Positions 9,473 to 53,159 of a DNA stretch of 53,159 bases are shown one piece after another. The stretch lies in the NCBI GenBank assembly GCA_947625215.1, contig CANQNL010000003.1:1-53159 (forward strand), given 5' to 3'. Position 1 is the first letter of the stretch. Each line of letters begins with the position of its first letter. Position numbers and translations under genes: made by a program. Origin of the DNA: an uncultured Bacilli bacterium. Lineage in GTDB: Bacteria; Bacillota_I; Bacilli_A; RF39; UBA660. Below the pieces are notes generated by a model. The model searched no databases. It was not told the origin of the DNA and saw only the letters and a program-made list of their open reading frames with translations.

Positions 9473-9508
9473 TTGCCAAAAACCTGGGGGGGGGGGGGGG
9501 GGTATAAT
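9473..9508 (+). promoter_or_regulatory. Poly-G (G17) spacer promoter of P1
   Basis: TTGCCA(9473-78)-AAAACCT-G17-TATAAT(9503-08); spacer 24 nt. Confidence 0.85.
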
Positions 9509-9541
9509 GTTTATATAGTAAACTAGGTAAGGAGAAAATAT

Positions 9542-11074
9542 ATGAGCGAAAAAAGAAAGAGAAATATAATAATATTTTCATTATGTGGAGTACTATTATT
9601 AATGACTATCGGATATGCTGCCTTTAATACACTACTAAATATAAATGGGACAACAAGTATAACAAGTAACTGGGATATAAAAATAACAAATATTACTAGT
9701 AAAGATAAAATAGGAGATGCTTCTGATGAAGAATCACAAGTAGTAGATGATCTATCTGCTACATTTAAAGCAAATTTAGTAAGTCCCGGTGATTCCATAA
9801 CCTACGATATAACCGTTGAAAATAAAGGAAATATAAATGCCGAGTTAGATAGTATTGATGTTAGTGAAAACACTAACGAAAATATAAAAATAGACATTTC
9901 AGGAATAGCTGAAGGAGATAAATTAAATGCCAGTAGCACGGCAACATTAAGTGTAAAAGTAACATATAGTGATGATGTAACAACGCAGCCTGATAATCTA
10001 GAAACAGAAGTAACTATAACCTTAAATTATGTTCAGGAAGGAATGAGAACACTATTTCCAACTTCAATAGATTTTGAAACAGTATCAACAACTAATTCAA
10101 TAACCGTAACGGCAACAAAAGTAAGTGGGGCTACTTATGAATTTAAAAAAGATGGTGAAGCTTATATAAGTAATGGTAAAAATAATGTTTATACCTTTAG
10201 TGAAATAACTCATAATACAGAACATCAAATTCAAGTTAAAGTAACAAAAGGAGAAAATACTTTAGAATCTGAAACTAAACCGATAAGAACCAACACCTTA
10301 CAAGCGCCAACCATCTCTATATCTTCATATACCGTTAATATGACCTTTCCTGCAGAATGTGCAGATGGGACATATACTTGTTCATATACTTTATCAGGAG
10401 CTCTAACTGGGACAACAACTGTTACCTCAACATCAGCTAGTGTTACTAATTCGAACATTGGTGTCAGTTTAACTGTAAAAGCCGATGTTAGTGATGGATA
10501 TAATACTGTTTCACAGTCACGTACGATGGAAACAGGTAGTTGTTTTGTAGCTGGAACGAAAGTATTAACTGAAAATGGCTTAAAAAATATTGAAGAATTA
10601 AAAATAGGGGAAAAAGTATATTCATATAATGAAAAAACCGAAAAATCTGAATTAAAGCCAATAACTAAAGTATACGTGCGTGAAAGATATGGAATAGTAA
10701 CATTAAAATATGAAAAATTAGATAACATAAACGGAAAAGTATATAATAACATCGATACACATTTTAATAAAAAAGAAAAAAATAATGAAATACAATCAAC
10801 CTTTGATCATCCATATTATGTCATAAATAAAGGATGGGTGGTAGCATCAAAATTAGAAATAGGAGATAGGATATTATCTATAGATAATAGTGAAATAGTT
10901 GTAAGAAGCTTACAAACTAATGAAGTAGATAAAACAAAAGTATATAATATGGAGGTAGAAGACAATCACAATTATTATGTAGGCTATGATAATCTTTTAG
11001 TTCACAATGATGAAAATTGGGGAAATCCTATTATGCCTATGGCTGGGGATTGCACTCGACCTGGGGTATATTAG
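9542..11074 (+). CDS. Family member P1: exported modular protein with C-terminal Hint domain and 21-aa tail
   Basis: N-terminal basic+hydrophobic segment, NLVSPGD..Y.I.VEN.G domain, FN3-like segment, variable domain. Hint motifs CFVAGT (Cys1), STFDHPY (block B) and VYNMEVEDNHNYYV..LLVHN. Confidence 0.88.
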   Translation: MSEKRKRNIIIFSLCGVLLLMTIGYAAFNTLLNINGTTSITSNWDIKITNITSKDKIGDASDEESQVVDDLSATFKANLVSPGDSITYDITVENKGNINAELDSIDVSENTNENIKIDISGIAEGDKLNASSTATLSVKVTYSDDVTTQPDNLETEVTITLNYVQEGMRTLFPTSIDFETVSTTNSITVTATKVSGATYEFKKDGEAYISNGKNNVYTFSEITHNTEHQIQVKVTKGENTLESETKPIRTNTLQAPTISISSYTVNMTFPAECADGTYTCSYTLSGALTGTTTVTSTSASVTNSNIGVSLTVKADVSDGYNTVSQSRTMETGSCFVAGTKVLTENGLKNIEELKIGEKVYSYNEKTEKSELKPITKVYVRERYGIVTLKYEKLDNINGKVYNNIDTHFNKKEKNNEIQSTFDHPYYVINKGWVVASKLEIGDRILSIDNSEIVVRSLQTNEVDKTKVYNMEVEDNHNYYVGYDNLLVHNDENWGNPIMPMAGDCTRPGVY

Positions 11075-11085
11075 CTAATAATTTT

Positions 11086-11112
11086 AACCGCACCATCGTG
11101 GTGTGGTTTTTT
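11086..11112 (+). terminator. Intrinsic terminator after P1
   Basis: AACCGCACCA-TCG-TGGTGTGGTT hairpin followed by a T run. Confidence 0.75.
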
Positions 11113-11210
11113 ATAAAAATATTTATGATAATTTGGTAAATTTGTAATTGGATTATAAAAATAAGTCCTAATTCCAAATGTCAATTTACGGCAAAAATGC
11201 CCGAAAATGC

Positions 11211-11241
11211 TTGCCAGAAACCTGGGGGGGGGGGGTATAAT
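11211..11241 (+). promoter_or_regulatory. Poly-G (G12) spacer promoter of P2
   Basis: TTGCCA-GAAACCT-G12-TATAAT; spacer 19 nt. Confidence 0.85.
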
Positions 11242-11274
11242 ATACTTAGAGTAAACTAGATAGGAGAATAATGT

Positions 11275-12795
11275 ATGAGTGAAAAAAGAAAGAGAAATGT
11301 AATAATATATTCATTATGCGGAGTATTACTATTAATGACTATTGGATATGCCGCATTTAATACACTTTTAACGATAAACGGAACAACATCAATTAGTAGT
11401 AACTGGGATATAAAGATAACAAATATTACCAACAAAGATATAGTAGGTAAAGCTTCAGATGAAGAATCACAAGTAGTAGATGACTTAAAAGCTACCTTTA
11501 AAGCTAATTTAGTAAGCCCTGGAGATTCTATAACTTATGATATAACCGTAGAAAACAAAGGAAATATAAATGCTGAGTTAGATAGTATCGATGTTAGTGA
11601 AAACACCAATGAAAATATAAAAATAGTAACTTCAGGAATAGCTGAAGGTGATAAATTAAATCCTAGTAGTACGGCAACCTTAAGTGTAAAAGTAACATAT
11701 AGTGATGAAGTTACAACGCAACCTGATAATTTAAAAGCGGAAGTAACAATAACTTTAAATTATATTCAAGAAGGAACAGGAATGCCAGAAACAATAGATT
11801 TTGAAACAGAATCAACAACAAGAGCAATAACTGTAACTGCACCAGCAGTTAGAGGTGCTACATATGAATTTAAAAAAGATACTGAAGAATACGTAAGTAA
11901 TGATGACCCCACTAATAATATATATACCTTTGACCAAATAACTCATAATACTCAGCATAATATCCAAGTAAAAGTAACAAAAGGAAGCAAAGTAATTGAA
12001 TCAGATGTGAAACCTGTTAGTACTAATGCTTTACCATCTCCTTCTATCACTGGGTCGGGCGAGACCGCTTATATGACATTTCCAGAGGAATGCGCCACAG
12101 GTGTATTTACTTGTCAGTATCGTACAGTAACCGACGTTAGTAGCCAAAATGTCACAAGAAGTGTAACTTCGCAGTCAGCTTCCTGGACTATCCAAGTTCA
12201 ATATGTTGGTTCTGATACTTATGGCGTTCACGGGACCGTTTATGCTAGTGTATCAGATGGATTTAATAAGGTTGAGGTTTCTGCGGGTTTAGTGAAACAA
12301 TGCTTTGTGGCTGGAACGAAAGTCTGGGCAGAAAAAGGTTTAGTGAATATAGAAGATTTGAAAGATGGGGATAAAGTATATTCATATAATGAAAAAACAA
12401 GAAAAGTGGAATTAAATGAAATATATAATACATATAACCGAAAAACGGATAAACTAATAACTTTAAGATATGCAAAAAATAATAAGATAAAACCAAATTA
12501 TAATACAAATAATATAGAAGAACATTATAATTCATCATCATCAGAAGAAGATAATATAATTAAATGTACACTTACTCATCGCTTTTATGTAGTAGGAAAA
12601 GGCTGGACACCTGCTAAAAAAATAGAAGTAGGAGATGAAATATTATCAATAGATGGTAGTGAAATTATAATAACAGATATTCAAACAAATACAGTTAAGC
12701 CAACTGCAGTATATAACTTTAGTGTAGTAGGTAATCATAATTATTATGTAGGTATGGGACTACTTGTCCATAATAAATATATGGTAGGAGTGTAG
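11275..12795 (+). CDS. Family member P2: exported modular protein with C-terminal Hint domain and 6-aa tail
   Basis: Same N-terminus as P1; Hint motifs CFVAGT, CTLTHRF and VYNFSVVGNHNYYVGMGLLVHN, followed by KYMVGV*. Confidence 0.88.
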   Translation: MSEKRKRNVIIYSLCGVLLLMTIGYAAFNTLLTINGTTSISSNWDIKITNITNKDIVGKASDEESQVVDDLKATFKANLVSPGDSITYDITVENKGNINAELDSIDVSENTNENIKIVTSGIAEGDKLNPSSTATLSVKVTYSDEVTTQPDNLKAEVTITLNYIQEGTGMPETIDFETESTTRAITVTAPAVRGATYEFKKDTEEYVSNDDPTNNIYTFDQITHNTQHNIQVKVTKGSKVIESDVKPVSTNALPSPSITGSGETAYMTFPEECATGVFTCQYRTVTDVSSQNVTRSVTSQSASWTIQVQYVGSDTYGVHGTVYASVSDGFNKVEVSAGLVKQCFVAGTKVWAEKGLVNIEDLKDGDKVYSYNEKTRKVELNEIYNTYNRKTDKLITLRYAKNNKIKPNYNTNNIEEHYNSSSSEEDNIIKCTLTHRFYVVGKGWTPAKKIEVGDEILSIDGSEIIITDIQTNTVKPTAVYNFSVVGNHNYYVGMGLLVHNKYMVGV

Positions 12796-12821
12796 CAGAT
12801 AATCATAATTATTATGTAAGA

Positions 12822-13013
12822 GATGGAGCAACGGTCAAATATAAAGGTAATACTTATATTTATAAAATAACTAATATTTATAATGAAACCAAAGATGGAG
12901 ACGTTATGATATATAGAAATAAAAATAAATCCACTTTAACACTCATCACTTGTACAAAAAATAGTGATACTGAGCGAACTATATATATAGCTGAATTACA
13001 ATAAAAATAATTG
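12822..13013 (+). pseudogene. Sortase 3' fragment (192-bp direct repeat, copy 2)
   Basis: Encodes ...KYKGNTYIYKITNIY...TLTLITCTKNSDTERTIYIAELQ* with no start codon; about 94% identical to 9224-9415. Confidence 0.88.
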
Positions 13014-13107
13014 ATTTTAGAAAACTAACATCTATTTATTGTTAAGATGTTAGTTTTTTAATACCCATTTTTAAATATTTACATATAATACTTTAGGGGT
13101 GACAAAA

Positions 13108-13554
13108 ATGTATAAAATTTATGAAGTACAAATGGGTGATACTTTAGATAGTATTGCTAGAAAATTAGGAGTAAATTCTGATGTCCTTGCTACTTTAAAT
13201 GGATTAAATGTAATGGCACCTTTAATGCCACAAACCTATATTGTAATTCCAAGTACAGATTCATTATTTAACAAATACACAGTAAGACCAGGTGATACTC
13301 TTAATAATATTGCTGAAGCATATGATGTTGATTTAGGACAACTTGCTAAATTAAATGGTATAAAAGATGTCGATTATATTTATGCTGGTGAAGAACTTAT
13401 GGTACCAAAACCTGGGACTAAATTCTATATTACTGGCAGAGGTGATGCTCTAAATATGGTAGCAAATTTCTTTGGAACATCAGCAGGTCAGCTTCTAAAT
13501 CAAAATCCAAATATTGTTTTGGGTGAAGAACAATTAATAGTTTATAAGAAATAA
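13108..13554 (+). CDS. LysM repeat protein
   Basis: YEVQMGDTLDSIA, YTVRPGDTLNNIA and a third degenerate LysM. Confidence 0.9.
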   Translation: MYKIYEVQMGDTLDSIARKLGVNSDVLATLNGLNVMAPLMPQTYIVIPSTDSLFNKYTVRPGDTLNNIAEAYDVDLGQLAKLNGIKDVDYIYAGEELMVPKPGTKFYITGRGDALNMVANFFGTSAGQLLNQNPNIVLGEEQLIVYKK

Positions 13555-13612
13555 CTTCTTATAATCTTTTTTTTTATGCGATTTTGTTATATAATAATAT
13601 ATGGTGAGGATT

Positions 13613-14029
13613 ATGAAAAAAATAATTGCAGTATTAATTATGTTGACGTTATTATTTAGTATTACTGGTTGCGGAGGACCAAAGACTTATAAAGAAATTA
13701 GTTTTGAAGAACTAAATAAAAAAATAGATGCTAAAGAAGATTTTATTTTATTTATTGGTTCTGAAACTTGTAGTGCTTGTTCGGCATATAAAATAACGCT
13801 TAATAAAGTGATTGAAAAAAACAAAGTTGAAGTTAATTACATAGATATTAGTAAATTATCTGATGATGAAAATAGCGACTTATTAGCCAATTTTTACTTT
13901 TCTTCAACGCCAACTACCGTGTTTGTTGAAAAGGGAAAAGAAAAGGATACTAATGACAGATTAGTAGGAGCTCAAAAATATAGCAAAGTAGTAAAGAAAT
14001 TTAAAGAAAAAGGATATATAAAGGAGTAG
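13613..14029 (+). CDS. Thioredoxin-fold lipoprotein
   Basis: Lipobox-like SITGC, CSAC active site and STPT cis-Pro motif. Confidence 0.8.
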   Translation: MKKIIAVLIMLTLLFSITGCGGPKTYKEISFEELNKKIDAKEDFILFIGSETCSACSAYKITLNKVIEKNKVEVNYIDISKLSDDENSDLLANFYFSSTPTTVFVEKGKEKDTNDRLVGAQKYSKVVKKFKEKGYIKE

Positions 14030-14033
14030 ATAT

Positions 14034-15005
14034 ATGCAAGGAAACTATTTAGACCCAAAAGAATTTCCCGTAATTTGTAATTATTGTGAGGATTTAACTG
14101 CAAAAACATATGTGACAGATCCTGCTATTGCTAGAGATGAGGAAATAAAAAGAACAATAATGGTTTTATTAACTCCAGAAAAATCAGCTTTGTTAGTTGG
14201 TAAAGCTGGTATTGGTAAAACGGCCATTGTTGAAGGTATTTGCTATAGAATTCAAAAAGGTGAAGTTCCTAATGCTATTAAAGATCATCGAATTTTAAAA
14301 ATAAATTCATCATCAATGTTAGGTTCAATGATGGTTGATGGTAAAGAAGAATCAGTAACTAATTTATTAGTGGCCGAACTTAAGAGATGCCCTAAGGCTA
14401 TTTTATTTATCGATGAGGTTCATACCCTAATTGGTGGTTCAGCAGATGGACCTATGGATCTTGCTAATATTTTAAAGCCAGCCTTAGACCGTGGTGATAT
14501 TAAAGCAATTGGTGCAACTACGACAATTGAATATGAAACATATATCATCAAGGATAGAGCCTTTTTAAGACGTTTTGATAGAATTGATGTCGAGGAGCCA
14601 GATCACGATGCTACAGTTAGAATTCTTTTAGGAACAATTCCTAAAATTGAATATAGAACAGGTATCAAAATGCTTCCAAATGCTTATTTAACTGAAGAAC
14701 TTATGCATTCAATTGTATCAGCAACTTCAGAATTTAAACGTGTTTATGGTATTTCAGCAATGTATCCAGACGTTTCATTATCTGTTTTATCAGGTGCCTT
14801 TTCTAATGCTTTATTTGAAAACAGAACTATTGTTGGAATTTTAGATGTTTATATGGCAATTAGAAATAGTAAACGTATTTATCCTGATAGTAGGGTAAAA
14901 GAATGTGAAGCTTTTAGACAAAAATTTTCACGTGTATGTGCTGCCGAAAATATAGTTTTACCACCGGTAGTACTAGCGGATATCGATAATGATTTAGATT
15001 TATAA
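14034..15005 (+). CDS. Stand-alone ClpA/ClpB-type AAA+ ATPase (single D1-like domain)
   Basis: GKAGIGKT Walker A, ILFIDEVH Walker B, IGATT..EY and AFLRRF arginine finger; no N domain and no second ATPase domain. Confidence 0.82.
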   Translation: MQGNYLDPKEFPVICNYCEDLTAKTYVTDPAIARDEEIKRTIMVLLTPEKSALLVGKAGIGKTAIVEGICYRIQKGEVPNAIKDHRILKINSSSMLGSMMVDGKEESVTNLLVAELKRCPKAILFIDEVHTLIGGSADGPMDLANILKPALDRGDIKAIGATTTIEYETYIIKDRAFLRRFDRIDVEEPDHDATVRILLGTIPKIEYRTGIKMLPNAYLTEELMHSIVSATSEFKRVYGISAMYPDVSLSVLSGAFSNALFENRTIVGILDVYMAIRNSKRIYPDSRVKECEAFRQKFSRVCAAENIVLPPVVLADIDNDLDL

Positions 15006-15020
15006 AAAGGAGAATATGAT

Positions 15021-15548
15021 ATGGACAAAAATGTTAAAAAAATTGAAACTAAAAATTATATTATTTTAGCCGTAGTTTTAGTAGTAACAGTGATTGCCGT
15101 TTTTTATGCTAGAAGTTGGTATTTAGAGACTAAAAGTGTTACCGTCAATAGTTCTCAAATGTTAGAGGTAGTAAAAGAGATTCATCAAGAAGAATTAGAA
15201 AATTATACCTTAGAAAATCCGAGGTTCATATTATATGTTGCCTCTTCCCAGGATAAAAGTATATCAGAATTTGAAAAAGAATTAAAAAGAATGATTATAA
15301 GTGAGGAACTTGAAAATTATTTTCTTTATTTAAATAGTGATGAAATTCAAAAAAGTAAACTTAATAAAACATTAATTGAAATGGCTAAAAACGCTAGCGT
15401 AAGAAAAGATATAAGTAATGCCGATGAAGTTTCATTATATATAGTTGAAACAGGAAGAATTACAAAAGTAATTTCTAATGCTGAAAAATTATCAGCTCCA
15501 GAGATTAGAAATACTTTAACAAAATACGGAGTGATTGATAATGCTTAA
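15021..15548 (+). CDS. Membrane-anchored hypothetical protein, possibly a redox-inactive thioredoxin fold
   Basis: Single N-terminal TM helix; ILYV...FLYLN strand pattern without cysteines; overlaps trmL. Confidence 0.6.
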   Translation: MDKNVKKIETKNYIILAVVLVVTVIAVFYARSWYLETKSVTVNSSQMLEVVKEIHQEELENYTLENPRFILYVASSQDKSISEFEKELKRMIISEELENYFLYLNSDEIQKSKLNKTLIEMAKNASVRKDISNADEVSLYIVETGRITKVISNAEKLSAPEIRNTLTKYGVIDNA

Positions 15549-16047: not shown

Positions 16048-16058
16048 GGAGGGGTAAA

Positions 16059-16877: not shown

Positions 16878-16943
16878 GCGCTTCAATATTTGTTAAAACT
16901 AGGAGGAATATAATATACTTGTAAGAAATTAGGAGACTTAGGT

Positions 16944-22344: not shown

Positions 22345-23586
22345 ATGAAGTATTTAGTAAAAACCTTATTAATTTTATTAGTAATTCTTTTATCTTTAAA
22401 ATTAATTTTTCATATATTTGATAAAGGTCATATTACTGATTATTCAGTAGGTAATTTTCAAGTAAAAGAACAGTTAAAAACTAAATCTTTATATGGAAAA
22501 GATAATTACTATTTTGAAATTACACACGAGAAATTTAATATGAATTTTCAACTGCCAATTAATTATAATAAAGCTGAAAAAATAATAAATAAAATTAAAT
22601 ATATAAAAACTTCAAATATGAACTGTATTATGCCTATATTTAAAGGCAATAAAATTGTAACTGATATTATGTGCTTAACAAATGATTCTATGATTAAGTT
22701 TTATCACGATTTAAATGATAGTGAAAAATCATCACTTTCTAAATTTGTAAAATCCTTAAAAAAATATAATTATGATCCAGAAATTTATATAGATAAGGCT
22801 AACGCTAGGAAATTATCAAATACCCAAAGTGTATACGATGATAATTTAACAGAAAATCATTATTTAGCGATTGAAAATTATAAAGGACTTACGCTATTTA
22901 ATAGTAAGCAAAATTCAGTTAAATTATTTAATAATGATATTTATACTAAGCCAGTAAAAACATTTACTGATAAATATTATATTGTCGCTGATTATAATGA
23001 AGAATATAGTTTTAAAAATTTTTATATTGTTAATATCATAAATGGCAATACAAAGAAAATTCGCAGTTATGATGATATATCGTTTGATTCTATTGTTGAG
23101 GGAACAGTTGGTGAAAATACTTACATTTTTGACAAAGATGCCGAAACACAATATAAAGTAAATCTCAAATATGAAAGCGTAGAAAAAGCAGGGACTAAAG
23201 ATAATATTAAATATTATAATGGTAAATGGGGAACAATGACTTTAAATGAAGCCCTAGATGGAAAGAAATTTGAAAACGATTATAAAAAAGCCCCAAAAGG
23301 TTATATTAAGGCCGTATGTAAATCTAATAAAACAGGATATTGTTATTATTATAAAAAAGTAAATGATATTTATGAAGTATACCGTAGTGATGTTCAAAAC
23401 CCTAAGTTAAAGACTTATTTATTTAAGACAACTGATATTGATAGTATCATATACTTAAATAACTACATTTATTTTATTAATGGTAATATAATTAATTATT
23501 ACTATGATAATGGTGTAAGAAAAGTACTTACAGATACTGAATTAGAATTTAATGATGATATTTCTTTCGGTGTATATGCAAAGTAA
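22345..23586 (+). CDS. Hypothetical exported/membrane-anchored protein
   Basis: 413-aa ORF with an N-terminal hydrophobic helix and a good RBS; Tyr/Lys/Asn rich. Confidence 0.7.
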   Translation: MKYLVKTLLILLVILLSLKLIFHIFDKGHITDYSVGNFQVKEQLKTKSLYGKDNYYFEITHEKFNMNFQLPINYNKAEKIINKIKYIKTSNMNCIMPIFKGNKIVTDIMCLTNDSMIKFYHDLNDSEKSSLSKFVKSLKKYNYDPEIYIDKANARKLSNTQSVYDDNLTENHYLAIENYKGLTLFNSKQNSVKLFNNDIYTKPVKTFTDKYYIVADYNEEYSFKNFYIVNIINGNTKKIRSYDDISFDSIVEGTVGENTYIFDKDAETQYKVNLKYESVEKAGTKDNIKYYNGKWGTMTLNEALDGKKFENDYKKAPKGYIKAVCKSNKTGYCYYYKKVNDIYEVYRSDVQNPKLKTYLFKTTDIDSIIYLNNYIYFINGNIINYYYDNGVRKVLTDTELEFNDDISFGVYAK

Positions 23587-23595
23587 GGGGTGATT

Positions 23596-24864
23596 ATGGT
23601 GAAAGAAGAAAAACTTGGATTAGTATTATCAGGTGGTGGATCTAAAGGAGCCTATGAGATTGGGGTATATAAGGCTTTAAAAAAACTAGGGAAATTTCCT
23701 GATATTGTTACAGGCACTTCTGTAGGCGCTCTTAATGGCGTAATGATTGTGCAAAAAGATTACCATAAGGCTTTAAAGCTATGGAAAAATATTTCATTTT
23801 CAAAAGTATATGATGAAGATGCATTTCCAATATGTGATAATCCAGACATTGCTGATGTCTATAAAATGTATGCTAAAACATTTATTACCGAAGGTGGTTT
23901 AGATATTGATGCTTTAGAAAGGCTTTTTGAACAATTATATAAACCACATAAATTTTTCTCATCGAATATTGACTATGGTTTAGTTACATATAATTTAAGT
24001 AAAAACAAACCTGTTTTTAAAACTAAAGCTGAACTAACTTTTGAAAATGTTAAAGATTATGTTATTGCATCAGCTTCTTGTTATCCGGCTTTTAAACCAC
24101 GTAAGATTGGTGATGAGTTATTTATAGATGGGGGCTATTATGACAATCTTCCTATTAATTTAGCTTTAAAAATGGGGGCAACAGAGATAATAGCGGTTGA
24201 TCTTCGCGCGGTTGGTTTTAAAAGACCTGTTAAGACAGACGCACCAATTACAACTATTATACCTAGAAATAAAATAGTTTCATTCTTAGTTTTTGATAAA
24301 GCTAAATCAAGAGAAGCTTTAAGATTTGGTTATAATGATACAATGAAAACTTTTGGCCATTTTGATGGTGATGAGTATACATTTAAAAAGCATAATTTAA
24401 TAAACAATTATAATCGTTATGGAAAATTGTTTGAAGATAAGATAAATGATATTTTAAAAGATGTCGATGATGGAATATTAGGGAAAATTATCAATGCTTC
24501 TATTTTTAAGGCCATAGTTAAGGATAAAGTTTCTTACAACCATTTTAATCAATTAGTTGAGGAAGCTGGGAAATGTTTTAAATTTGCTGAAGATGTTTTA
24601 TATAATATAAGAACATATAATAAAGGTTTACTTACAGAATTATCTAAAGTAGAACCAGTAGATATTAATAATATTATTAATAAAATAAAAAATCGAAAAT
24701 TAAAAAATTTGATTGATAGAAGGCAAATAGTTAGACTATTTTATGAAGCAATTATTAATGATAAGGTTCGTGAAGTCTTTGTATTACTACCAGTTTTTGC
24801 TGATGAATTTTTAATTGCTTTATATCTTTATATTGTTAAAAATAATGTTATTGGATTTTATTAA
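23596..24864 (+). CDS. Patatin-like phospholipase
   Basis: LSGGGSKG, GTSVG nucleophile and IDGG. Confidence 0.92.
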   Translation: MVKEEKLGLVLSGGGSKGAYEIGVYKALKKLGKFPDIVTGTSVGALNGVMIVQKDYHKALKLWKNISFSKVYDEDAFPICDNPDIADVYKMYAKTFITEGGLDIDALERLFEQLYKPHKFFSSNIDYGLVTYNLSKNKPVFKTKAELTFENVKDYVIASASCYPAFKPRKIGDELFIDGGYYDNLPINLALKMGATEIIAVDLRAVGFKRPVKTDAPITTIIPRNKIVSFLVFDKAKSREALRFGYNDTMKTFGHFDGDEYTFKKHNLINNYNRYGKLFEDKINDILKDVDDGILGKIINASIFKAIVKDKVSYNHFNQLVEEAGKCFKFAEDVLYNIRTYNKGLLTELSKVEPVDINNIINKIKNRKLKNLIDRRQIVRLFYEAIINDKVREVFVLLPVFADEFLIALYLYIVKNNVIGFY

Positions 24865-25916: not shown

Positions 25917-25938
25917 AAGGATTTAAAGTCCTTTTTTT

Positions 25939-26065
25939 CATAATAAAAACGCACCATATTTTTACTTATAAAAAGCAGAATATAATTAAGTAAAAAATGA
26001 CTTGGTGCGCATATGGAGCCTAAGCCCCTTTAGATAAGCTTTACTTACCTAAAGGAGCCTAGGCT
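25939..26065. repeat. 127-bp double-hairpin element, copy A (downstream of P4)
   Basis: Matches 45697-45823 with 2 mismatches. Contains the arms CGCACCA..TTTTTACTTA / TAAGTAAAAA..TGGTGCG and CCTTTAG..TAAG / CTTA..CTAAAGG. Confidence 0.9.
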
Positions 26066-27194: not shown

Positions 27195-27229
27195 ATTATA
27201 ATTATGGGTCTGAGTATTGTCAATACTCA
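27195..27229 (-). promoter_or_regulatory. Consensus sigma-A promoter of P4 with a palindromic operator over the -35 box
   Basis: Minus strand TTGACA-N17-TATAAT; TGAGTATT-GTC-AATACTCA perfect 8-bp inverted repeat at 27211-27229. Confidence 0.8.
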
Positions 27230-27282
27230 AAAAGATAAAAAATTTCGTATAGTTGATAAACTGATATTCGAGGTGATTGTTA

Positions 27283-27507
27283 ATGAAAATAGTTGCCAAT
27301 AACTACAAATCAAATGAAATTATGAGAATAATAAGGGAGTGGACAGAATTATCACAAAAAGATTTTGCTAAATCAATTGGTAGAAGTCGTGATAGTATTA
27401 ATAGTATTGAAAATGGAAGAAATAGAGTCTTCTTAAATACCTTATTAGAGATCGCTAAAGAGCACGATATTACAATTACAATCGAAAAGAAAACTAAAGT
27501 TCATTAA
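27283..27507 (+). CDS. XRE-family HTH transcriptional regulator
   Basis: IREWTELSQKDFAKSIGRSRDSINSIENGR; divergent from P4. Confidence 0.88.
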   Translation: MKIVANNYKSNEIMRIIREWTELSQKDFAKSIGRSRDSINSIENGRNRVFLNTLLEIAKEHDITITIEKKTKVH

Positions 27508-32660: not shown

Positions 32661-33035
32661 TTATTTTACTTTACAATCTATATCATAAATATATTCGTAT
32701 TGCTTATAAGTAGCATCATATTTTAACGTTACACTACCTGTCATCTCTTCATTATTGGCAGGATTATTCAACTCCTGATCACTGGCTAAATAACCATTCT
32801 TTTTTAAATTACTAATAGATATAGAAGTGTTTTTACCTTGTAATAATGCACTGTTATCCGCTGCCCATCTTTCAGCGGCACTTTCAATCCTTTGTTTTTG
32901 CTCTTCACAAGCTTTTTCTCTTGAATTTTTAATAGCTTCCTGAATGAATGGAAAAGCTATAGCAGCAATAATGGCAAGAATAACTATTACAGCCATTAAT
33001 TCAATTAGAGTAAAACCTTTTTTCATTCTTATCAC
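32661..33035 (-). CDS. Type IV pilin-like protein (prepilin cleavage/methylation domain)
   Basis: KKG-FTLIELMAVIVILAIIAAIAFP. Confidence 0.9.
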   Translation of the reverse strand: MIRMKKGFTLIELMAVIVILAIIAAIAFPFIQEAIKNSREKACEEQKQRIESAAERWAADNSALLQGKNTSISISNLKKNGYLASDQELNNPANNEEMTGSVTLKYDATYKQYEYIYDIDCKVK

Positions 33036-39791: not shown

Positions 39792-40568
39792 TTAGTTTAA
39801 TTTTTTCTGATAACTATGAGCAGTTTGTTTTTGTTTAATATCTAACTCATAAATTGCTTCGCAGATTTTATAATAATAAAAGGCTTTAATTTTATCATAA
39901 TTTCCTTCACCAATTGCCTCCTCTAAAAACTCTCTATATGGTTTATGTTCATATGCTTTAAGACAAACTGATGGAAGACCGACATTTAAAAATAGTTTAT
40001 TAATAAATCCTCTAATACTTCTTTTATTGCCATCAACAAACGGATGAACTTTAATTAAATTACATTTTAATTCGACGCATCTATCAATATATTCAAAAAT
40101 TTTACTGTAATCTTTTTTTACGTCTTCACCTAATTTAACAATATCACCAATTTCATAATCTAAATTATTAAGGCAATTTCTTATTTCATAATGAGGAATA
40201 ATATCTACAGCAATACCATTTAAATGAGCTGTAGCATTTCTAATTGTTCCGCCTACTTCTGGATAAGGTGCTTTCGAATATAATTTTCTATGAATTTCTA
40301 ATAAAGTATATACATCAAAACGATAGTTAATATCATCTGAATGTATATAATTATACATTTCTCTAAGTCCTTCTTTAGCAAATGGCTCATCATTATTTTC
40401 TAAACCACTTTCATTATCAATAAAATCATTAATCGCACTTTCTCTTATATCATCTAAATTTCTATATTCTTTATCTATTTTATAATACTCACTAATAAAG
40501 TCTTTAGATGAAATTTCATTATCATCATAAAGAATTTCTAATCTTTGTTTTTGAACATCAGCATTCAT
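39792..40568 (-). CDS. Fic family protein
   Basis: HPFVDGNKRSIR matches HPFxDGNxRxxR. Confidence 0.88.
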   Translation of the reverse strand: MNADVQKQRLEILYDDNEISSKDFISEYYKIDKEYRNLDDIRESAINDFIDNESGLENNDEPFAKEGLREMYNYIHSDDINYRFDVYTLLEIHRKLYSKAPYPEVGGTIRNATAHLNGIAVDIIPHYEIRNCLNNLDYEIGDIVKLGEDVKKDYSKIFEYIDRCVELKCNLIKVHPFVDGNKRSIRGFINKLFLNVGLPSVCLKAYEHKPYREFLEEAIGEGNYDKIKAFYYYKICEAIYELDIKQKQTAHSYQKKLN

Positions 40569-43967: not shown

Positions 43968-44021
43968 ACCGCATCAACCAGCCCACGTCTCCTATGGATT
44001 ACCTTAACCAGATATAACTTA

Positions 44022-45023: not shown

Positions 45024-45057
45024 ACATTTTTCTCCTTACCTAGTTTATTCTATAAAT

Positions 45058-45088
45058 ATTATACCCCCCCCCCCCAGGTTTTTGGCAA
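45058..45088 (-). promoter_or_regulatory. Poly-G (G12) spacer promoter of P5
   Basis: Minus strand TTGCCA-AAAACCT-G12-TATAAT; spacer 19 nt. Confidence 0.85.
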
Positions 45089-45598: not shown

Positions 45599-45696
45599 AA
45601 TTATCCCCCTATCTTTGTTAATTCAAGTGTAATATATCTTTGGACATTTGTTCAATAGATTTTTAATATTTTCTTTAAAAGTGCACTTCCCTTATA

Positions 45697-45823
45697 CATA
45701 ATAAAAACGCACCATATTTTTACTTATAAAAAGCAGAATATAATTAAGTAAAAAATGACTTGGTGCGTATATGGAGCCTAAGCCCCTTTAGATAAGCTTT
45801 ACTTACCTAAAGGAGCCTGGGCT
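45697..45823. repeat. 127-bp double-hairpin element, copy B (downstream of P6)
   Basis: Matches 25939-26065 with 2 mismatches; abuts the P6 stop codon. Confidence 0.9.
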
Positions 45824-46863: not shown

Positions 46864-46897
46864 ACATTCTTCTCCTTACCTAGTTTACTCTAAGTAT

Positions 46898-46928
46898 ATT
46901 ATACCCCCCCCCCCCAGGTTCTTGACAA
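46898..46928 (-). promoter_or_regulatory. Poly-G (G12) spacer promoter of P6
   Basis: Minus strand TTGTCA-AGAACCT-G12-TATAAT; spacer 19 nt. Confidence 0.85.
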
Positions 46929-47003
46929 GTATTTTTGGGGTATTTTGTGAAAATTTTGCAATATAAAAACAAGCACGTTCAAATATGCTTGCTTTTATAT
47001 ATT

Positions 47004-48460: not shown

Positions 48461-48489
48461 TTTCTATCACCACTACTATAAAAAGTATA

Positions 48490-48762
48490 TCATTTTTTAA
48501 AATGTTTGGCAATTACTTGTTCAAGATAATAGCCCCCTATTAACATTATTAAACAGTAGGGATGAAAAACTGCATTATTTATTTCTTTAAGCAAAATGAA
48601 ATATATAAGCACACTTATTAAAACAACTAAAAAAGTCCCTAAGAATTTAATCCATTTTTTACTATTATAAATTATTTTATGATTAACATTTATAAATAAG
48701 GAAAAAAAGATTCCATATAAAAAAGAAAAAAGTAATGCAAAAATTTGAGTTTTTAGATCCAT
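48490..48762 (-). CDS. yabQ: Spore cortex protein YabQ-like (short)
   Basis: Hydrophobic 90-aa protein with a QIFALLFSFLYG start, located between yabP and divIC. Confidence 0.7.
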   Translation of the reverse strand: MDLKTQIFALLFSFLYGIFFSLFINVNHKIIYNSKKWIKFLGTFLVVLISVLIYFILLKEINNAVFHPYCLIMLIGGYYLEQVIAKHFKK

Positions 48763-49049
48763 TATTTAAACAGTTTTGTAAATATGCTACTTTCTTTATC
48801 TTTTTTTCCATTTTCAGTATAATTTAAGCTATTTACCTTTCCTTTAATGGAAACATTGCCTTGATAAGTATCTAATTTAATTATTTCTAACTCTTCACCC
48901 TTAATAATTAAATCACCCATCGTGGTTTCCAAATAAAATTCATCTTCATCAAAACTATCAATTTTTTTTACTCCTGTAATAACTATATTTTTTCTCTCAT
49001 TAAGCGTAATTCCGTGCGTTAATGAAGAAATTGCTTCCATCTTGTCCAT
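48762..49049 (-). CDS. yabP: Sporulation protein YabP
   Basis: HGITLNERKNIVITGVKKIDSFDE...LETTMG.L.IKGEEL...V.IKG. Confidence 0.9.
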   Translation of the reverse strand: MDKMEAISSLTHGITLNERKNIVITGVKKIDSFDEDEFYLETTMGDLIIKGEELEIIKLDTYQGNVSIKGKVNSLNYTENGKKDKESSIFTKLFK

Positions 49050-49088
49050 AATTTTCCTCCTAGAAAATTATATGCACAAAAAAGAAGA

Positions 49089-49355
49089 CTATTCATCTTC
49101 TTTTAAATTATTATATTCTTCGATAATTGCATCTTCAAACATCTTACGACAATCTTGTGTAATTGGGTGTGCAATATCGTGGTACTCATCATTATTGGTT
49201 TTGCGACTTGGCATAGCAATAAATAATCCACCATCACCCTCGATAATTCTGATGCCGTGAACTGCAAAGCAATCATCTAATACCACAGATGCAATTCCAC
49301 GAATACGAGAATTCTCCTTTTCAATCTTTCTAACGTTTATTGATGTAATTTTCAA
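49089..49355 (-). CDS. spoVG: SpoVG
   Basis: MKITSINVRK...ASVVLDDCFAVHGIRIIEG..GLFIAMPSRK...DIAHPI; TTG start. Confidence 0.95.
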   Translation of the reverse strand: MKITSINVRKIEKENSRIRGIASVVLDDCFAVHGIRIIEGDGGLFIAMPSRKTNNDEYHDIAHPITQDCRKMFEDAIIEEYNNLKEDE

Positions 49356-49422
49356 GCTAACCTCTCCCTTCTGGTACCTTAAATTCCAATTTAAGTATAC
49401 AATATTTTAAAGAAAAAAACAA

Positions 49423-49671
49423 CTATTTATCAAAAATTTTAATTGTTTTTGTAATAATATCTGCATATGAGAAAGATTTTACACTTTTATTTTCGTCCAT
49501 TACTTCAACTAAAAAGATACAATTATATAATTTTGTAATCTTTGCCTTATAAGTTTCGTGCTTATTACGACCAAGATTATACTTGATAGTTAAAGGTTTC
49601 CCAATATAACTACTTAAAGTCTTTCTAATAATTTCATTATCACATACACCTTTATCTAGGATATCCCACAT
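49423..49671 (-). CDS. veg: Veg family protein
   Basis: YIGKPLTIKYNLGRNK...LY..IF.VE...SFSYADIIT; follows yabG. Start codon uncertain. Confidence 0.82.
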   Translation of the reverse strand: MWDILDKGVCDNEIIRKTLSSYIGKPLTIKYNLGRNKHETYKAKITKLYNCIFLVEVMDENKSVKSFSYADIITKTIKIFDK

Positions 49672-50434
49672 ACATTGTTCCTTTCGTAATAATTCCTCCA
49701 ATTCCATCTTTACCGTATTTGGTTTTTTCTAATATTTCTTTTAAATTAATATCTTTGTTAATATCCGATAAACTCATTTTAGCCGCTACAATGGCTGGAT
49801 CTAGAGCGTGAATATTTATTCTTTTAGGACTTGAAGCAAAATTAGCTCCCGCTTTTATAAGCTCTTCATAATAAGAAGCACACGCGCCAGCAATTATAAT
49901 TAATTTTTCGTGACTGCTTTCATATTTACGAGCATTTTTAACCGCTTCAGCAAAATATAAACTTGACTTATAAGCTGATAAATCATCCGTATTTCCTTTA
50001 CGTTTATTATAAGCATCGTGTCCTGTAATTACCACGATATTTGGTTTATACTCTTCTAATAATTTTATAATATTTCTAGGAATATCTTCTTCTTTTTCAT
50101 TAATACCCATTGCCCAAATATTTATTTTTTTATAATACTCAAGACACCTATTTAAGTAATCCATATCACTATCAATATGAAGAATTTTCCCTGGTAAATA
50201 AAAATAGTCATTACGATCTAAATCAACTTTTGTCTCTAGTCTATCTAAAAAGTCTTTTTCGTGTTCGATATCTTTATCATCGTGTTTCTTTAAATCATCG
50301 ATATTGGCATCAGCGATTAATCTTATATTCATTCCTTTTAATTTAACTTCATTTCCGTTTATTTCAATAATCTTAAAGACGACATCATTATCATAAGAAT
50401 TACGCGTTACTAAATCACCTACATTAAATTCCAT
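49652..50434 (-). CDS. yabG: Sporulation peptidase YabG
   Basis: VGDLVTRNSYDND, PGKILHIDSD, VVITGHDA, GACASYYE and ASSPKRINIHALDP. Confidence 0.93.
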   Translation of the reverse strand: MEFNVGDLVTRNSYDNDVVFKIIEINGNEVKLKGMNIRLIADANIDDLKKHDDKDIEHEKDFLDRLETKVDLDRNDYFYLPGKILHIDSDMDYLNRCLEYYKKINIWAMGINEKEEDIPRNIIKLLEEYKPNIVVITGHDAYNKRKGNTDDLSAYKSSLYFAEAVKNARKYESSHEKLIIIAGACASYYEELIKAGANFASSPKRINIHALDPAIVAAKMSLSDINKDINLKEILEKTKYGKDGIGGIITKGTMYVGYPR

Positions 50435-50702
50435 ATTATCACCCAAACAATTATATGAATTAAAAACTAAAAGTATTCTTAACACTTTTAGTTTTTTAAA
50501 ATATAAAAATTACCTTCATTATTGCTTTGATTAATATTTAAATCAGTCAAAAACGCTGAAATAGTTATTGTAATTATCAAAAAGGTACATAGTAAAATAG
50601 TTGTAATCAAGTTTGCTTTATTTAAACGAACTATCTTAATCACCTCCCTTTTATCGTCAAAAATTGCACTTTATATATAATAAAATTATGATCGGTGATA
50701 AT

Positions 50703-50927
50703 ATGATTAAATTGCAAAGATTAAAAGATTTAAGAGAAGATATGGATCTTAATCAAACTGATTTATCTAAAATTCTTAAAATGTCACAGGCACAATATTC
50801 ACGAATTGAAACTGGTGAAAATATGATAAGTTTAGATAGTCTAATTAGATTATCAGAATTTTATAATGCCAGTACAGATTATATTTTAGGTTTAACTGAT
50901 GAAAAAAGGCCATATTCTAAAAGATAA
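50703..50927 (+). CDS. XRE-family HTH transcriptional regulator
   Basis: RLKDLREDMDLNQTDLSKIL.MSQAQYSRIETG...LSEFYNASTDYILGL. Confidence 0.9.
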   Translation: MIKLQRLKDLREDMDLNQTDLSKILKMSQAQYSRIETGENMISLDSLIRLSEFYNASTDYILGLTDEKRPYSKR

Positions 50928-51111
50928 TTTAATCTTAATTAATTATATTCTTAATATGTATTATAAATGTCAAATCTAAATACCCTTATAATAAGAAAAA
51001 CATATCTTTAAATATTTAAAGGTATGTTTTATTCGCATAAAAGTAACATTTTAGAAAAATACATTTCTTTTTGACTAAAAAATGTAAAGAAAAAAAGGAA
51101 TTTTAAATTCC

Positions 51112-52509
51112 CTAATAATTTTCTATTGTATATGGTTTATCTTGGGTACCTGCTCCTGATAATTTAATATCGGATTTTAGATAGAGAGTTGGAACAACAT
51201 TACGTTCCCAACCTGCAGCATCCATACCAAGACTACCATTAGATAAAAACACAACTATTCCATCAGCATTGTCATTTGTACCTACTCCTGGTCGATATTC
51301 TGGTAAAATAGTCCAAGCAGCCACATCATCAAGAGAATGATGCATCCACTGAGTATTTCCACAAAATGTTACATTCCAAATCGCATTCGGGCTTTGCCCA
51401 CATTGTGCTTGATTTGAATTTGACTTTAAAAAATCACTTGGTGATATAAGCCCAATATAACTTTTGGAGCTGTATTGTTTTTCTTCAGAAACAATGGTAG
51501 ATAAACTTTGTGATGCCCAAGTAATTGGCCCATAATACCAATTATGATTTTCTATATATGTTTTAAAAGTTGGATTTATAGTATCATAATATGTATTATT
51601 TAAATAATTTTTTATATTAGAGTCGCTTTCGACTGTTCCACTTACTCCATCTCTTGAAAAAAAATGATTATCAAAATTTTCTGTTTCAGCCCAAACACCA
51701 CAGGCACATTTTGGTTCATCGCATTGCACATAACTACAATATCCAGTAGTTCTAGCATCTTTAGAATCAAATGCCCTCTTTTCTGGCAATGCATTATTTC
51801 GCATTATCTTAATAGTACCATCAGTTTCAATTGCTATTATTCGCCATTGTTCTCCATTAAAGGTTATATAGTTATTTGGGTTTCCACCTTTATATACATA
51901 TCTTCCCGGTTCTACAGGGTCATTATATAATCCATCTTCTGCAGTTACTATAGGCACTTCTATTCCTTTCATATCGATAACTGTACTAGGTTCCACTTCT
52001 GATTTATTCTTTTGTACATAATCTAATTTCATTTCAAAACTTGCAGTCTTATTTTCTGGTTGCTTTGTTACTTCAGGATTATATTCTATCTTTACTGTTA
52101 AGGTTGCACTATGATCTGCTAGTAACTCATCTCCTGCTGCAAGTCCAGTTGTTGTTATTAATATGGCTTCATTATTTAACTGTGGCAAGATTATTTTATT
52201 TAGCTCAGCATCTATTGTTCCTTTATTTTCTATAGTCACATCATAAGTTATATAATCTCCTGGACTTACTAAATTTACATTAAATGTTGCTTCTAAATCT
52301 TCATATTTTGGAAATTCCTCTACTGAAGATGCATCTCCTTCTTTTGCATTTTGTTTAATGTCTGTTATTTTTATATCCCAGTTACTAGTTATACTTGCTG
52401 TTCCATTTATATTTAAAAGTGTATTAAAAGCCGCATACCCTACAGTCATTAATAATAGCACTCCGCATAACGTACATATTACTATATTTCTTTTTTTCTT
52501 TTCACTCAT
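51112..52509 (-). CDS. Family member P7: conserved N-terminus with a DUF6273-like C-terminal head
   Basis: Family N-terminus followed by GRYVYKGGNPNNYITFNGEQWRII, IKNYLNNTYY, IGLISPSDF and VVPTLYLK...GAGTQDKPY. Confidence 0.82.
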   Translation of the reverse strand: MSEKKKRNIVICTLCGVLLLMTVGYAAFNTLLNINGTASITSNWDIKITDIKQNAKEGDASSVEEFPKYEDLEATFNVNLVSPGDYITYDVTIENKGTIDAELNKIILPQLNNEAILITTTGLAAGDELLADHSATLTVKIEYNPEVTKQPENKTASFEMKLDYVQKNKSEVEPSTVIDMKGIEVPIVTAEDGLYNDPVEPGRYVYKGGNPNNYITFNGEQWRIIAIETDGTIKIMRNNALPEKRAFDSKDARTTGYCSYVQCDEPKCACGVWAETENFDNHFFSRDGVSGTVESDSNIKNYLNNTYYDTINPTFKTYIENHNWYYGPITWASQSLSTIVSEEKQYSSKSYIGLISPSDFLKSNSNQAQCGQSPNAIWNVTFCGNTQWMHHSLDDVAAWTILPEYRPGVGTNDNADGIVVFLSNGSLGMDAAGWERNVVPTLYLKSDIKLSGAGTQDKPYTIENY

Positions 52510-52543
52510 ACATTTTTCTCCTTACCTAGTTTACTCTATAAAT

Positions 52544-52571
52544 ATTATACCCCCCCCCAGGTTTTTGGCAA
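52544..52571 (-). promoter_or_regulatory. Poly-G (G9) spacer promoter of P7
   Basis: Minus strand TTGCCA-AAAACCT-G9-TATAAT; spacer 16 nt. Confidence 0.85.
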
Positions 52572-52650
52572 GTATTTTCAGGGAAAATATTGAAAAAATT
52601 TGCAAAAAGAAATAGTTGAACTTTTTAAAATAATATAGTATAATTTAGTT

Positions 52651-52745
52651 AGTGAATTTATTTCACAAAAAAGGAAGCGCTGAAACTTATCAGCGACTAC
52701 CTTGTTGTTGGTAGCCTACTTAGCTTACGCTAATAGGCTTTTTTT
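52651..52745 (+). ncRNA. Candidate ~95-nt small RNA (possible antisense/antitoxin RNA)
   Basis: Promoter TTGAAC(52616)-N17-TATAAT(52639); hairpin CGCTGA/TCAGCG; terminator AGCCTA-C-TTAGC-TTAC-GCTAA-TAGGCT plus T run; no ORF. Confidence 0.55.
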
Positions 52746-53018
52746 GTTACCAAATCCCCCTGAGAGTTTATAAGCTCCTACTTGAATAAGATAAGCAAAA
52801 TGATAATAGCTAGTAAAACAATAGTAAGTATGTCTTTTTTATTTAGCCTATTATCAAACCGCCTTTTGAATCTTTTTTGATAAAAGAAGGTAGCCTATGA
52901 TAGTGGTTTCTGCACTTCAAAAAAGCAATATTATTACACAGTATTTTTATAGTCAAATTACAAATTTGCCAAATTACCATAAATAATTATATAAATAAAC
53001 CGCACCACATTGGTGCGG

Positions 53019-53159
53019 CTAATCCCAAGTACAAGGGGCAAAGACCATAGGCATAATAGGATATGATCCCATTTCATCATTGTGAACTAAAAGGTTATCA
53101 TAGCCTACATAATAATTGTGATTATCTTCTACCTCCATATTATATACTTTTGTTTTATC
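53019..53159 (-). CDS. Family member P8 (3' end only): Hint C-terminus plus 19-aa tail
   Basis: Hand translation DKTKVYNMEVEDNHNYYVGYDNLLVHN-DEMGSYPIMPMVFAPCTWD*. The first 81 bp match P1 10928-11008 with 2 mismatches; the ORF runs off the window end. Confidence 0.88.
   Translation of the reverse strand, partial: DKTKVYNMEVEDNHNYYVGYDNLLVHNDEMGSYPIMPMVFAPCTWD

Follow-up and report, generated by a model that had tools for sequence, protein, structure and literature searches.

The modular gene family in the window

The 53,159-bp contig CANQNL010000003.1 from an uncultured bacterium, analysed here over its whole length and called the window in what follows, carries a dispersed family of modular genes whose products are probably exported and displayed on the cell surface, to judge from their N-terminal helix and the types of domain that follow it. 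The family is represented by seven full-length paralogues, P1–P7, and by P8, which is cut by the window end (Table 1). An initial annotation of this stretch had listed eight loci, all of which were recovered at the coordinates it gave, and had counted seven copies as complete; seven loci are indeed full-length, but codon 13 of P6 is TAG where P4 has TCG, and this nonsense codon marks P6 as a pseudogene or silent copy. The contig is chromosomal, with a GC content of 29%, and the host of the family is an uncultured, low-GC, spore-forming ‘Bacilli’ bacterium of the gut.

P1–P7 begin with a common N-terminal region of ~165–170 amino acids (aa; 42–97% aa identity), which consists, in this order, of the residues MSEKRKRN, a hydrophobic helix of 20 residues ending in GYA-AF, a linker (NTLLNINGTTSITSNW) and an eight-stranded β-sandwich. 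The N-terminus ahead of the helix is positively charged, and the GYA-AF motif at its end is almost invariant. The best-conserved DNA is the first ~150 nucleotides (nt), with 77–86% nt identity between the P4/P6 and the P1/P2/P3/P5/P7 subfamilies, which agrees with the shared 5′ block of ~45 codons described initially, except that the part shared by the proteins is the whole N-domain. An AlphaFold2 (AF2) model of P1 residues 1–335 (predicted local distance difference test, pLDDT, 90) places the helix at residues 3–31, a disordered segment at 32–39 and β-sandwich domains at 46–165, 178–249 and 257–329. The linker (pLDDT <50) is predicted to be disordered yet is conserved, with L32, I34, G36 and W44 retained to at least 90% across 120 relatives. 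A fold search with the three-domain model retrieved generic tandem immunoglobulin (Ig)/FN3 proteins only.

The N-domain is combined with different C-terminal parts. P1, P2, P4, P5 and P6 continue with an FN3-like domain and a third domain of ~80 aa, the tip cassette, in which a frame is conserved (FPxEC..G.Y.CSY ... SDG(Y/F)N) and the rest of the sequence is unrelated between copies. P3 and P7 carry a larger head in place of both, ending in ...LSG(A/D)G..(D/H)(K/P)PY.IENY. The initial naming of these heads as DUF6273-like stands in part: P3 scores 19.8 bits (E 8e-4) with DUF6273 (PF19789), below the gathering score of 23.5, and P7 gives no match to this model, while 16 of the 120 relatives match it, with E-values down to 3e-15, and many share an ...LSGxGTxxxPYxI end. 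Since relatives with the same C-terminal end match DUF6273, remote homology is likely, and the head is likely to be of the lectin type.

Between P2 and P3 lie two further genes, one for a thioredoxin-like lipoprotein with the lipobox ITGC and a CSAC motif (13601–14029) and one for a DUF6568 protein that is anchored in the membrane and weakly matches a thioredoxin-like domain (15021–15548). Outside the cytoplasm, both products may act as thiol-disulfide enzymes on the Cys-rich tip cassettes.

Replacement of the tip cassettes

The borders of the exchanged segments can be followed most closely in P4 and P6. The first 774 coding nt of the two genes are shared at 99.4% identity (aa 1–259, 99%), the next ~250 nt are unrelated (30% aa identity between the cassettes), and identity resumes at the stop codon and runs at 96–97% through a 3′ flank of ~135 nt with two hairpins; upstream of the ATG the two promoters differ. 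P2 and P5 share 97% aa identity in the N-domain and 93% in the FN3-like domain versus 41% in the cassette. Two further proteins, P0237 and P0238, fall into the 90%-identity cluster of P5. P0237, which is encoded on another NCBI contig, shows 98% identity in the N-domain, 92% in the FN3 domain and 33% in the cassette. P0238, on the ENA contig L015, belongs to a mosaic made of the P1 Hint end with its tail, a P2-type intergenic region and promoter, a P2-like 5′ end, and the P5 body with its downstream DNA. A variable segment between conserved flanks is seen in P4/P6 as well as in P2/P5/P0237/L015, and in the few sequences available for comparison (P0237, L015) the loci are not invariant between strains. 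As read from these alignments, recombination through flanks of near identity has replaced the tip cassettes; neither a signal nor an enzyme dedicated to it was identified. The initial description of a dispersed, modular family with mix-and-match C-termini was borne out in this respect, with sharp recombination borders.

Two sites carry debris of such events. Behind P5, the N-terminal half of a Hint domain has been deleted, and what had been taken for an orphan Hint-end cassette is not free: it is the remnant of this deletion, directly downstream of the P5 stop. Judged from a tblastn read-through and by eye, the terminal Cys of P5 follows the shared SDG motif where P1 and P2 have the Hint Cys1. 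Behind P2, a scrap of a Hint end is fused to a 200-nt copy of the 3′ end of the sortase gene that lies upstream of P1 (12817–13016 matches 9219–9418, 93% identity), and the scar marks where the units of P1 and P2 were once rearranged with each other.

In other assemblies, family genes stand at contig ends in L002, L004, L006 and L009, from the metagenome-assembled genomes (MAGs) CANRSQ01 and CALVJP01; several of these contigs break inside the conserved 5′ block, and CANRSQ01 holds at least four copies. Short-read assemblies are fragmented by the family, and its copy number is probably higher than they show. Exact look-ups of P2, P7, P0001, P0002 and P0237 returned no contigs.

Homopolymer runs in the promoters

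The promoters of P1, P2, P5, P6 and P7 have the form TTG(C/T)CA-(A/G)(A/G)AACCT-Gn-TATAAT, followed by a conserved leader (TAAACTAG..GGAGA) and the ATG, and in their alignment the G run is the only length difference. The runs are 17, 12, 12, 12 and 9 nt long in P1, P2, P5, P6 and P7, respectively, giving spacers of 24, 19, 19, 19 and 16 nt, and they are the sole G/C runs of at least 7 nt in the 53-kb, 29% GC window. A scan for sigma-70-type promoters with spacers of 16–18 nt called P7, with 11 of 12 consensus matches, and did not call P1 and P2; as predicted from spacing, P7 is the only tract promoter within the sigma-70 range in this assembly. The five poly-G spacers reported initially are present, with the anatomy expected of slipped-strand phase variation, and so is the leader shared by most copies: it reads GTAAACTAG..GGAGA in P1, P2, P6 and P7 and carries one change in P5 (ATAAACTAG), is degenerate in P3 and is absent in P4.

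The two remaining full-length copies are preceded by other arrangements. P3 has an interrupted, shortened version of the promoter (AAACTAGGAGGAATATAAT) directly after the upstream gene. At P4, a perfect 9+9 palindrome (TGAGTATTG-A-CAATACTCA; 27211–27229, 19 bp) covers the −35 element and is a candidate operator, and a gene for a 76-aa XRE-type helix-turn-helix (HTH) protein diverges from it, both as had been pointed out at the outset; P4 would be regulated instead by this repressor-type operator and its divergent HTH gene. The gene upstream of P3 (16059–16877, +) encodes a 272-aa protein with one N-terminal transmembrane helix, a long Pro/Thr/Glu-rich low-complexity tail and no family match; 66 nt separate its end from P3, with which it may share a transcript.

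Homopolymers were also found at the promoters of homologues from other contigs. The L003 homologue has G17 between TTGCCT and TATAAT, that of L006 has T18-GGG-T-TATAAT at the same promoter position, and that of L001 has a run of more than 20 T farther upstream, while L005, L007, L008 and L017 have no promoter tract. The tract-less L017 promoter reads ...AAAACAGGGTATAAT, the likely starting point of the G-run expansion. That another species has a run of a different base at this promoter position speaks for selection acting on the repeat itself. Run length may also differ between assemblies, with G4 in L015 against G12 in the window, both being consensus values and L015 having a coverage of only ~2x. 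Scans of JGI metagenomes with the promoter pattern and with the N-domain alignment gave no match. The closest tract-less member, on the JGI contig L017 (643–10915), lies just downstream of genes for a serine recombinase, an ORF6N-domain protein and an FtsK/SpoIIIE ATPase, and with these neighbours it may sit on an integrative element.

Table 1. Family genes, promoters and associated features in the window
Feature	Coordinates	Strand	Description
Sortase gene	8786-9406	+	206 aa, TLITC motif; adjoins P1
P1 promoter	9473-9508	+	TTGCCA, AAAACCT + G17 (9486-9502), TATAAT; 24-nt spacer, predicted OFF
P1	9542-11074	+	510 aa: signal/anchor helix, Ig-like N-domain, FN3-like domain, Cys cassette, Hint, tail
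P1 terminator	11086-11112	+	intrinsic
P2 promoter	11211-11241	+	TTGCCA, GAAACCT + G12 (11224-11235), TATAAT; 19-nt spacer
P2	11275-12795	+	506 aa; architecture as P1
Recombination scar after P2	12796-13016	+	Hint-end scrap DNHNYYV fused in frame to sortase 3′-end copy
P3 upstream region	16890-16914	+	TTGTTA-AAACTAGGAGGAA-TATAAT, 13-nt spacer; degenerate, interrupted tract promoter
P3	16944-18143	+	399 aa; N-domain and DUF6273-like head
P4/P6 shared 3′ flank	25934-26065	-	downstream border of exchanged cassette; second copy 45692-45823
P4	26080-27102	-	340 aa; N-domain, FN3-like domain, Cys cassette; no Hint
P4 promoter	27195-27229	-	TTGACA-17-TATAAT, tract-free
Divergent XRE-type HTH gene	27277-27507	+	76 aa
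Hint remnant behind P5	43827-43952	-	blocks F and G, tail; VYNISVEDNQNYYVSFYGLLVHN-YAFGPCNNYP
P5	44022-45023	-	333 aa; ends at Cys, then two stop codons
P5 promoter	45058-45088	-	G12 (C run 45064-45075 on + strand); 19-nt spacer
P6	45823-46863	-	P4 paralogue with different 10-Cys cassette; TAG at codon 13
P6 promoter	46898-46928	-	TTGTCA, AGAACCT + G12, TATAAT; 19-nt spacer
P7	51112-52509	-	465 aa; N-domain and DUF6273-like head
P7 promoter	52544-52571	-	TTGCCA, AAAACCT + G9, TATAAT; 16-nt spacer
P8 terminator	52998-53020		after P8 stop
P8, 3′ end only	coding 53022-53159, stop 53019-53021	-	Hint blocks F and G, tail

The C-terminal Hint domain and its tail

P1 and P2 end in a PT-HINT domain (PF07591), which was found with 68.2 bits (E 1e-18) and 58.0 bits (E 2e-15), respectively, against a gathering score of 27.7. 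In P1 the domain spans residues 334–489 (nt 10541–11008) and is followed by a tail of 21 aa, DENWGNPIMPMAGDCTRPGVY (nt 11009–11071); in P2 it spans residues 343–500 (nt 12301–12774), with a tail of 6 aa, KYMVGV. In P8 the Hint end and peptide noted initially are there, i.e., blocks F and G and a 19-aa tail, DEMGSYPIMPMVFAPCTWD, with 82% aa identity to the P1 end. Across an alignment of 14 Hint domains every catalytic position is kept: Cys1 (CFVAGT), TxxH in block B, DxH in block F (DNHNYYV) and LVHN at the end. P1 and P2 have the complete catalytic set, and a non-nucleophile stands at +1 (D in P1, K in P2, D in P8). Judged by these motifs, the C-terminus of P1, P2 and P8 follows the pattern of the A-type bacterial intein-like (BIL)/PT-HINT domains, and the Hint would cut itself and the tail off the mature protein. 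BIL domains self-cleave and occur in hypervariable, non-conserved secreted proteins, where a role in post-translational variability has been proposed (PMC7765530, reviewing Amitai 2003 and Dassa 2004). The tails of P1 and P8 both contain PIMPM and one Cys, and that of P1 is unchanged in L015.

The closest relatives of these Hint domains (36–47% identity) are C-terminal too and are found on type-IV-pilin-like proteins (MKKQKG/ITLIALV...) with Listeria-Bacteroides repeats, where the tails have 4–9 aa (ASSPC, ATASKC, NNSAC, HCGGSN, IKSPT, EGSKE, AGTK). Such genes stand in tandem on two gut metagenome contigs (L013, 3734–4624 and 7638–9017; L014, 6537–7595 and 8001–8693), with tails of 4–6 aa, and only two Hint relatives, P0226 and P0227, extend ~90–100 aa past the Hint in the manner of a toxin module. 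Since the family and the pilin-like proteins both show it, a Hint with a minimal tail appears to be a recurrent ending of filament-like surface proteins in these bacteria. For this family, and for Hints on pilin-like proteins, no description was found in the literature searched, and this ending, common to both, poses a clean question about roles of bacterial Hint domains beyond toxin delivery.

The initial annotation had likened the family to polymorphic toxins, in which exchangeable tips follow the PT-Hint. This comparison failed: the variable tip precedes the Hint, and the 6–21 aa behind it are followed by a terminator and the next promoter, which is not the architecture of a polymorphic toxin. 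No toxin-family match was found in the copies and no immunity-like open reading frame (ORF) after P1, P2 or P8. The polymorphic-toxin reading was rejected on the shortness of the tails and the position of the variable module in front of the Hint.

The N-terminal module in other genomes

A HMMER search of 1.84 billion cluster representatives (50% identity) with the N-module gave 3581 proteins at E ≤1e-3 and 1148 at 1e-10. Of the best 150 matches, nearly all have the module starting no later than residue ~10, and the proteins range from 132 to 2335 aa in length. The C-terminal partners found among 120 relatives were DUF6273 (16), Listeria-Bacteroides repeats/Flg_new (9), DUF285 (5), BspA-type leucine-rich repeats, fn3, PA14, LamG and phage tail collar, a repertoire that, by domain content, is typical of adhesins and binding proteins; PT-HINT was found in a single case. 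Many relatives consist of the N-domain alone. Domain-only members of 164 aa, without a homopolymer promoter, have a conserved place beside ltaS and ylbD/ylbE on contigs of up to ~1 Mb (L010–L012, 10001–10495) and seem to be a stable ‘core’ form of it.

No Pfam or NCBIfam model matched the N-module above its cut-off. Weak matches were to DUF7507/CLIPPER_2, DUF11-repeat and choice-of-anchor-D models; in a set of 64 N-domains, BsaA (TIGR04090) was matched by 10 (best 2.6e-4, 17.8 bits against a cut-off of 60) and TasA by 4, and the camelysin-type Peptidase_M73 reached 9e-4 (19.6 bits against a cut-off of 22.5). A profile search of the PDB with the N-module returned no TasA even at E-values up to 10, and Foldseek with the N-domain model (pLDDT 83) returned generic Ig sandwiches (best E 8e-3), with TasA outside the top 50. 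In view of the below-cut-off scores, the empty PDB search and the generic Foldseek matches, the module was not filed under TasA/BsaA, and TasA membership was rejected on the hidden Markov model scores and the missing fold match.

Neighbouring genes and genomic setting

The family genes are interspersed with those for a ClpC-type ATPase, TrpRS, TyrRS and IF-2, with cdaA, ybbR, mscL, deoC, nusA and divIC, and likewise with the sporulation genes cotJB, gerQ, yabP, yabQ and yabG. The closest TyrRS sequences, at no more than 84% identity, come from ‘Bacilli bacterium’ MAGs; the contig with the closest one (L016) has neither synteny to the window nor a family gene, and relatives of the family occur in MAGs filed as ‘uncultured Bacilli/Tenericutes’. 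No prophage or plasmid signature was found in the window. A prophage had been suspected at 27.5–38 kb and was rejected, the genes there being housekeeping genes (CDF transporter, TyrRS, DeoC, IF-2, NusA). The leaders and 3′ flanks, searched against Rfam, gave a single tRNA and no other RNA family.

A canonical type IV pilin or pseudopilin gene (MKKGFTLIELMAV...; 32661–33035, −) is flanked by a GtrA-like gene and a 113-aa ORF, and no pilus assembly genes were found in the window around it. A Fic/DOC family protein of 258 aa (39792–40568, −) is encoded amid metabolic genes. A 413-aa Tyr/Asn/Lys-rich protein has a signal or anchor and no family match, and a patatin-like phospholipase is encoded directly downstream of it (22345–24864, +).

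Interpretation and alternative explanations

The best explanation of these data, and a fairly probable one, is a modular family of exported, probably surface-displayed proteins that is varied by promoter slippage, which would switch the copies, and by recombination of the cassettes. Simple-repeat phase variation is an established mechanism (PMC11868660). By analogy, slipped-strand mispairing in the G runs would change the spacer length and each copy would switch on, off or in level independently of the others, with P7 as the sole active tract copy in this assembly. A population of such cells would vary the tip that it displays, and recombination among the copies would create new combinations, for which P6 and the Hint scraps may act as donors; host antibody or phage would be the likely selective pressure. 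Six copies keep intact frames and their own promoters, and only P6 and the scraps are silent. If this is true, the family, with its 3581 clusters, would give uncultured gut Bacilli a major repertoire of variable surface proteins, relevant to immunoglobulin A (IgA) coating, phage receptors and strain persistence. Several relatives stand at contig ends, which indicates that family genes break MAG assemblies, and they would escape standard annotation.

Several observations weigh against this explanation. The tract lengths are values from consensus assemblies, in which homopolymers are error-prone. The recombination recorded in the sequences is historical; the L015 mosaic is only suggestive, since at ~2x coverage a chimeric assembly through a shared 844-nt repeat is conceivable. 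No cell-wall anchor was found in the family proteins. The Hint is present in three of the eight copies and has been lost from P5, which shows that it is not essential to the family.

Slippage and cassette exchange have to be weighed against readings that ascribe a different role to the same parts, or none. Were the paralogues simply decaying duplicates and the homopolymers neutral or assembly artefacts, the nonsense codon of P6, the lost Hint of P5, the scraps after P2 and the unreliability of homopolymer lengths in short-read data would be as expected; this is highly improbable, as all five long G runs occupy one identical position in one promoter type, in a genome of 29% GC, a homopolymer of another base occupies the equivalent place in distant relatives, six copies have long intact reading frames, and the family is large and widespread. 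The proteins could also be built as fibres, i.e., as TasA/BsaA-like subunits processed by SipW, the disordered strand of one inserting into the Ig-like domain of the next, in which case the family would supply alternative subunits of the fibre or its tip, and the domain-only relatives (~164 aa) would be the major subunits. TasA has a Phe at P2′ of its A/AF site and needs SipW (PMC10269814), and the donor strand or loop of BsaA is disordered and conserved (PMC11580942); the family proteins have the same Phe in GYA/AF and a disordered linker conserved to at least 90%, the weak BsaA, TasA and camelysin matches recur, and many relatives are the domain alone. A fibre of this kind is nevertheless unlikely, with all matches far below the curated cut-offs, no TasA in the PDB search, only generic Ig sandwiches from Foldseek, no SipW or S26 peptidase in the window or in nine annotated related loci, and no S24 peptidase in the window.

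The remaining readings concern the Hint. It might release the variable tails (DENWGNPIMPMAGDCTRPGVY, DEMGSYPIMPMVFAPCTWD, KYMVGV, YAFGPCNNYP) as signalling or antimicrobial peptides, in keeping with the intact terminal HN for C-terminal cleavage, the toxin-module-like extensions of P0226 and P0227, the identity of the P1 tail in another assembly and the PIMPM and Cys common to P1 and P8. Such a payload is quite unlikely, given that the tails of P2 and most relatives (4–9 aa) are too short and too dissimilar, that a terminator and the next promoter follow directly in place of an immunity-like ORF, and that no toxin domain was detected. Similarly improbable, and drawn by analogy, is a reaction like that of the Hedgehog Hint, in which the last peptide bond of the tip would become a thioester and be resolved by an outside nucleophile, leading to covalent polymerisation or adhesion independent of sortase. 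The Hint with hardly any C-extein would on this reading be a device that recurs among filament-type surface proteins of uncultured gut Firmicutes. Candidates for the nucleophile would be the next subunit, through its free N-terminus or a lysine, an amine of the cell wall, and a host or prey ligand, and the Hint-less P4, P5 and P6, which end near the would-be cleavage site, may be non-reactive variants.

The initial annotation had gone further and combined everything into one integrated device, in which switching selects the tip, and a Hint thioester and the sortase release it or conjugate it to a target. The sortase gene is real, intact and directly upstream of P1, and Cys1 with TxxH would permit a thioester at the end of the tip cassette. 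The association of the sortase with the family did not hold up: no LPXTG-type sorting signal (motif, hydrophobic stretch, charged tail) was found in P1–P7 or any ORF of the window, and no sortase homologue in 14 related loci, so that adjacency is the only link, a functional connection is not supported by the sequences, and the sortase was rejected as a component. With five of the eight copies lacking a Hint and the genes forming independent transcription units scattered among housekeeping and sporulation genes, a single integrated system is very unlikely; the release or conjugation of the tip is speculative.

Relation to known systems of surface variation

Phase variation by homopolymers in promoter spacers is textbook knowledge in Mycoplasma, Neisseria, Haemophilus and Bordetella, with the vlp genes of Mycoplasma hyorhinis (poly-A), the porA (poly-G) and opc (poly-C) genes of Neisseria and fim2/fim3 of Bordetella pertussis (poly-C) as examples. 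The window family resembles them in that the homopolymer lies between or beside the promoter hexamers, where slippage alters the spacing, and in that paralogous surface genes each have their own tract, which makes combinatorial expression possible; its host lineage is related to the Mollicutes. It differs from these systems in its proteins, which are unrelated to theirs (neither lipoproteins, porins nor chaperone-usher fimbriae), in its host, a gut Firmicute that is walled and forms spores, in the unusual length of its poly-G runs, which reach 17, and in the joining of the tract with cassette replacement and, in three copies, with a Hint; the switching itself is here a prediction from the sequence. 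To our knowledge, such phase variation has hardly been documented in walled spore-forming gut Firmicutes, in which work has centred on invertible promoters.

The replacement of the tips recalls the cassette-based antigenic variation of Neisseria pilE/pilS, Borrelia vlsE and Mycoplasma genitalium MgPa. Common to them and the window family are a variable cassette within conserved flanks, defective copies or fragments that are possible donors, and, here, a mosaic allele in another sample. Unlike in those loci, which are classed as contingency loci (PMC11868660), most copies in the window have their own promoter and a full frame, and there is therefore no single expression site with silent donors.

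With the A-type BIL domains, the Hint shares Cys1, TxxH, block F, the terminal His-Asn, a non-nucleophile at +1 and a location in hypervariable secreted proteins; it differs from BIL/PT-HINT domains in its place at the extreme C-terminus, with 6–21 aa and hardly any C-extein behind it and the variable module in front. With TasA, BsaA and camelysin (PMC9674648, PMC11580942, PMC10269814), the N-module has in common a possible signal peptide ending in ...A/AF, a conserved strand, predicted to be disordered, followed by a β-sandwich, and weak profile matches, and it is set apart by scores far below the cut-offs, the lack of a fold match, the lack of a SipW nearby and the large, diverse C-terminal domains. 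The initial statement that no description combines these parts holds for this family, for which none was found, and does not extend to the parts, each of which is classical (PMC7765530, PMC11868660). In comparison with the known systems, this is a new protein family that uses two classical mechanisms of variation, and not a categorically new system.

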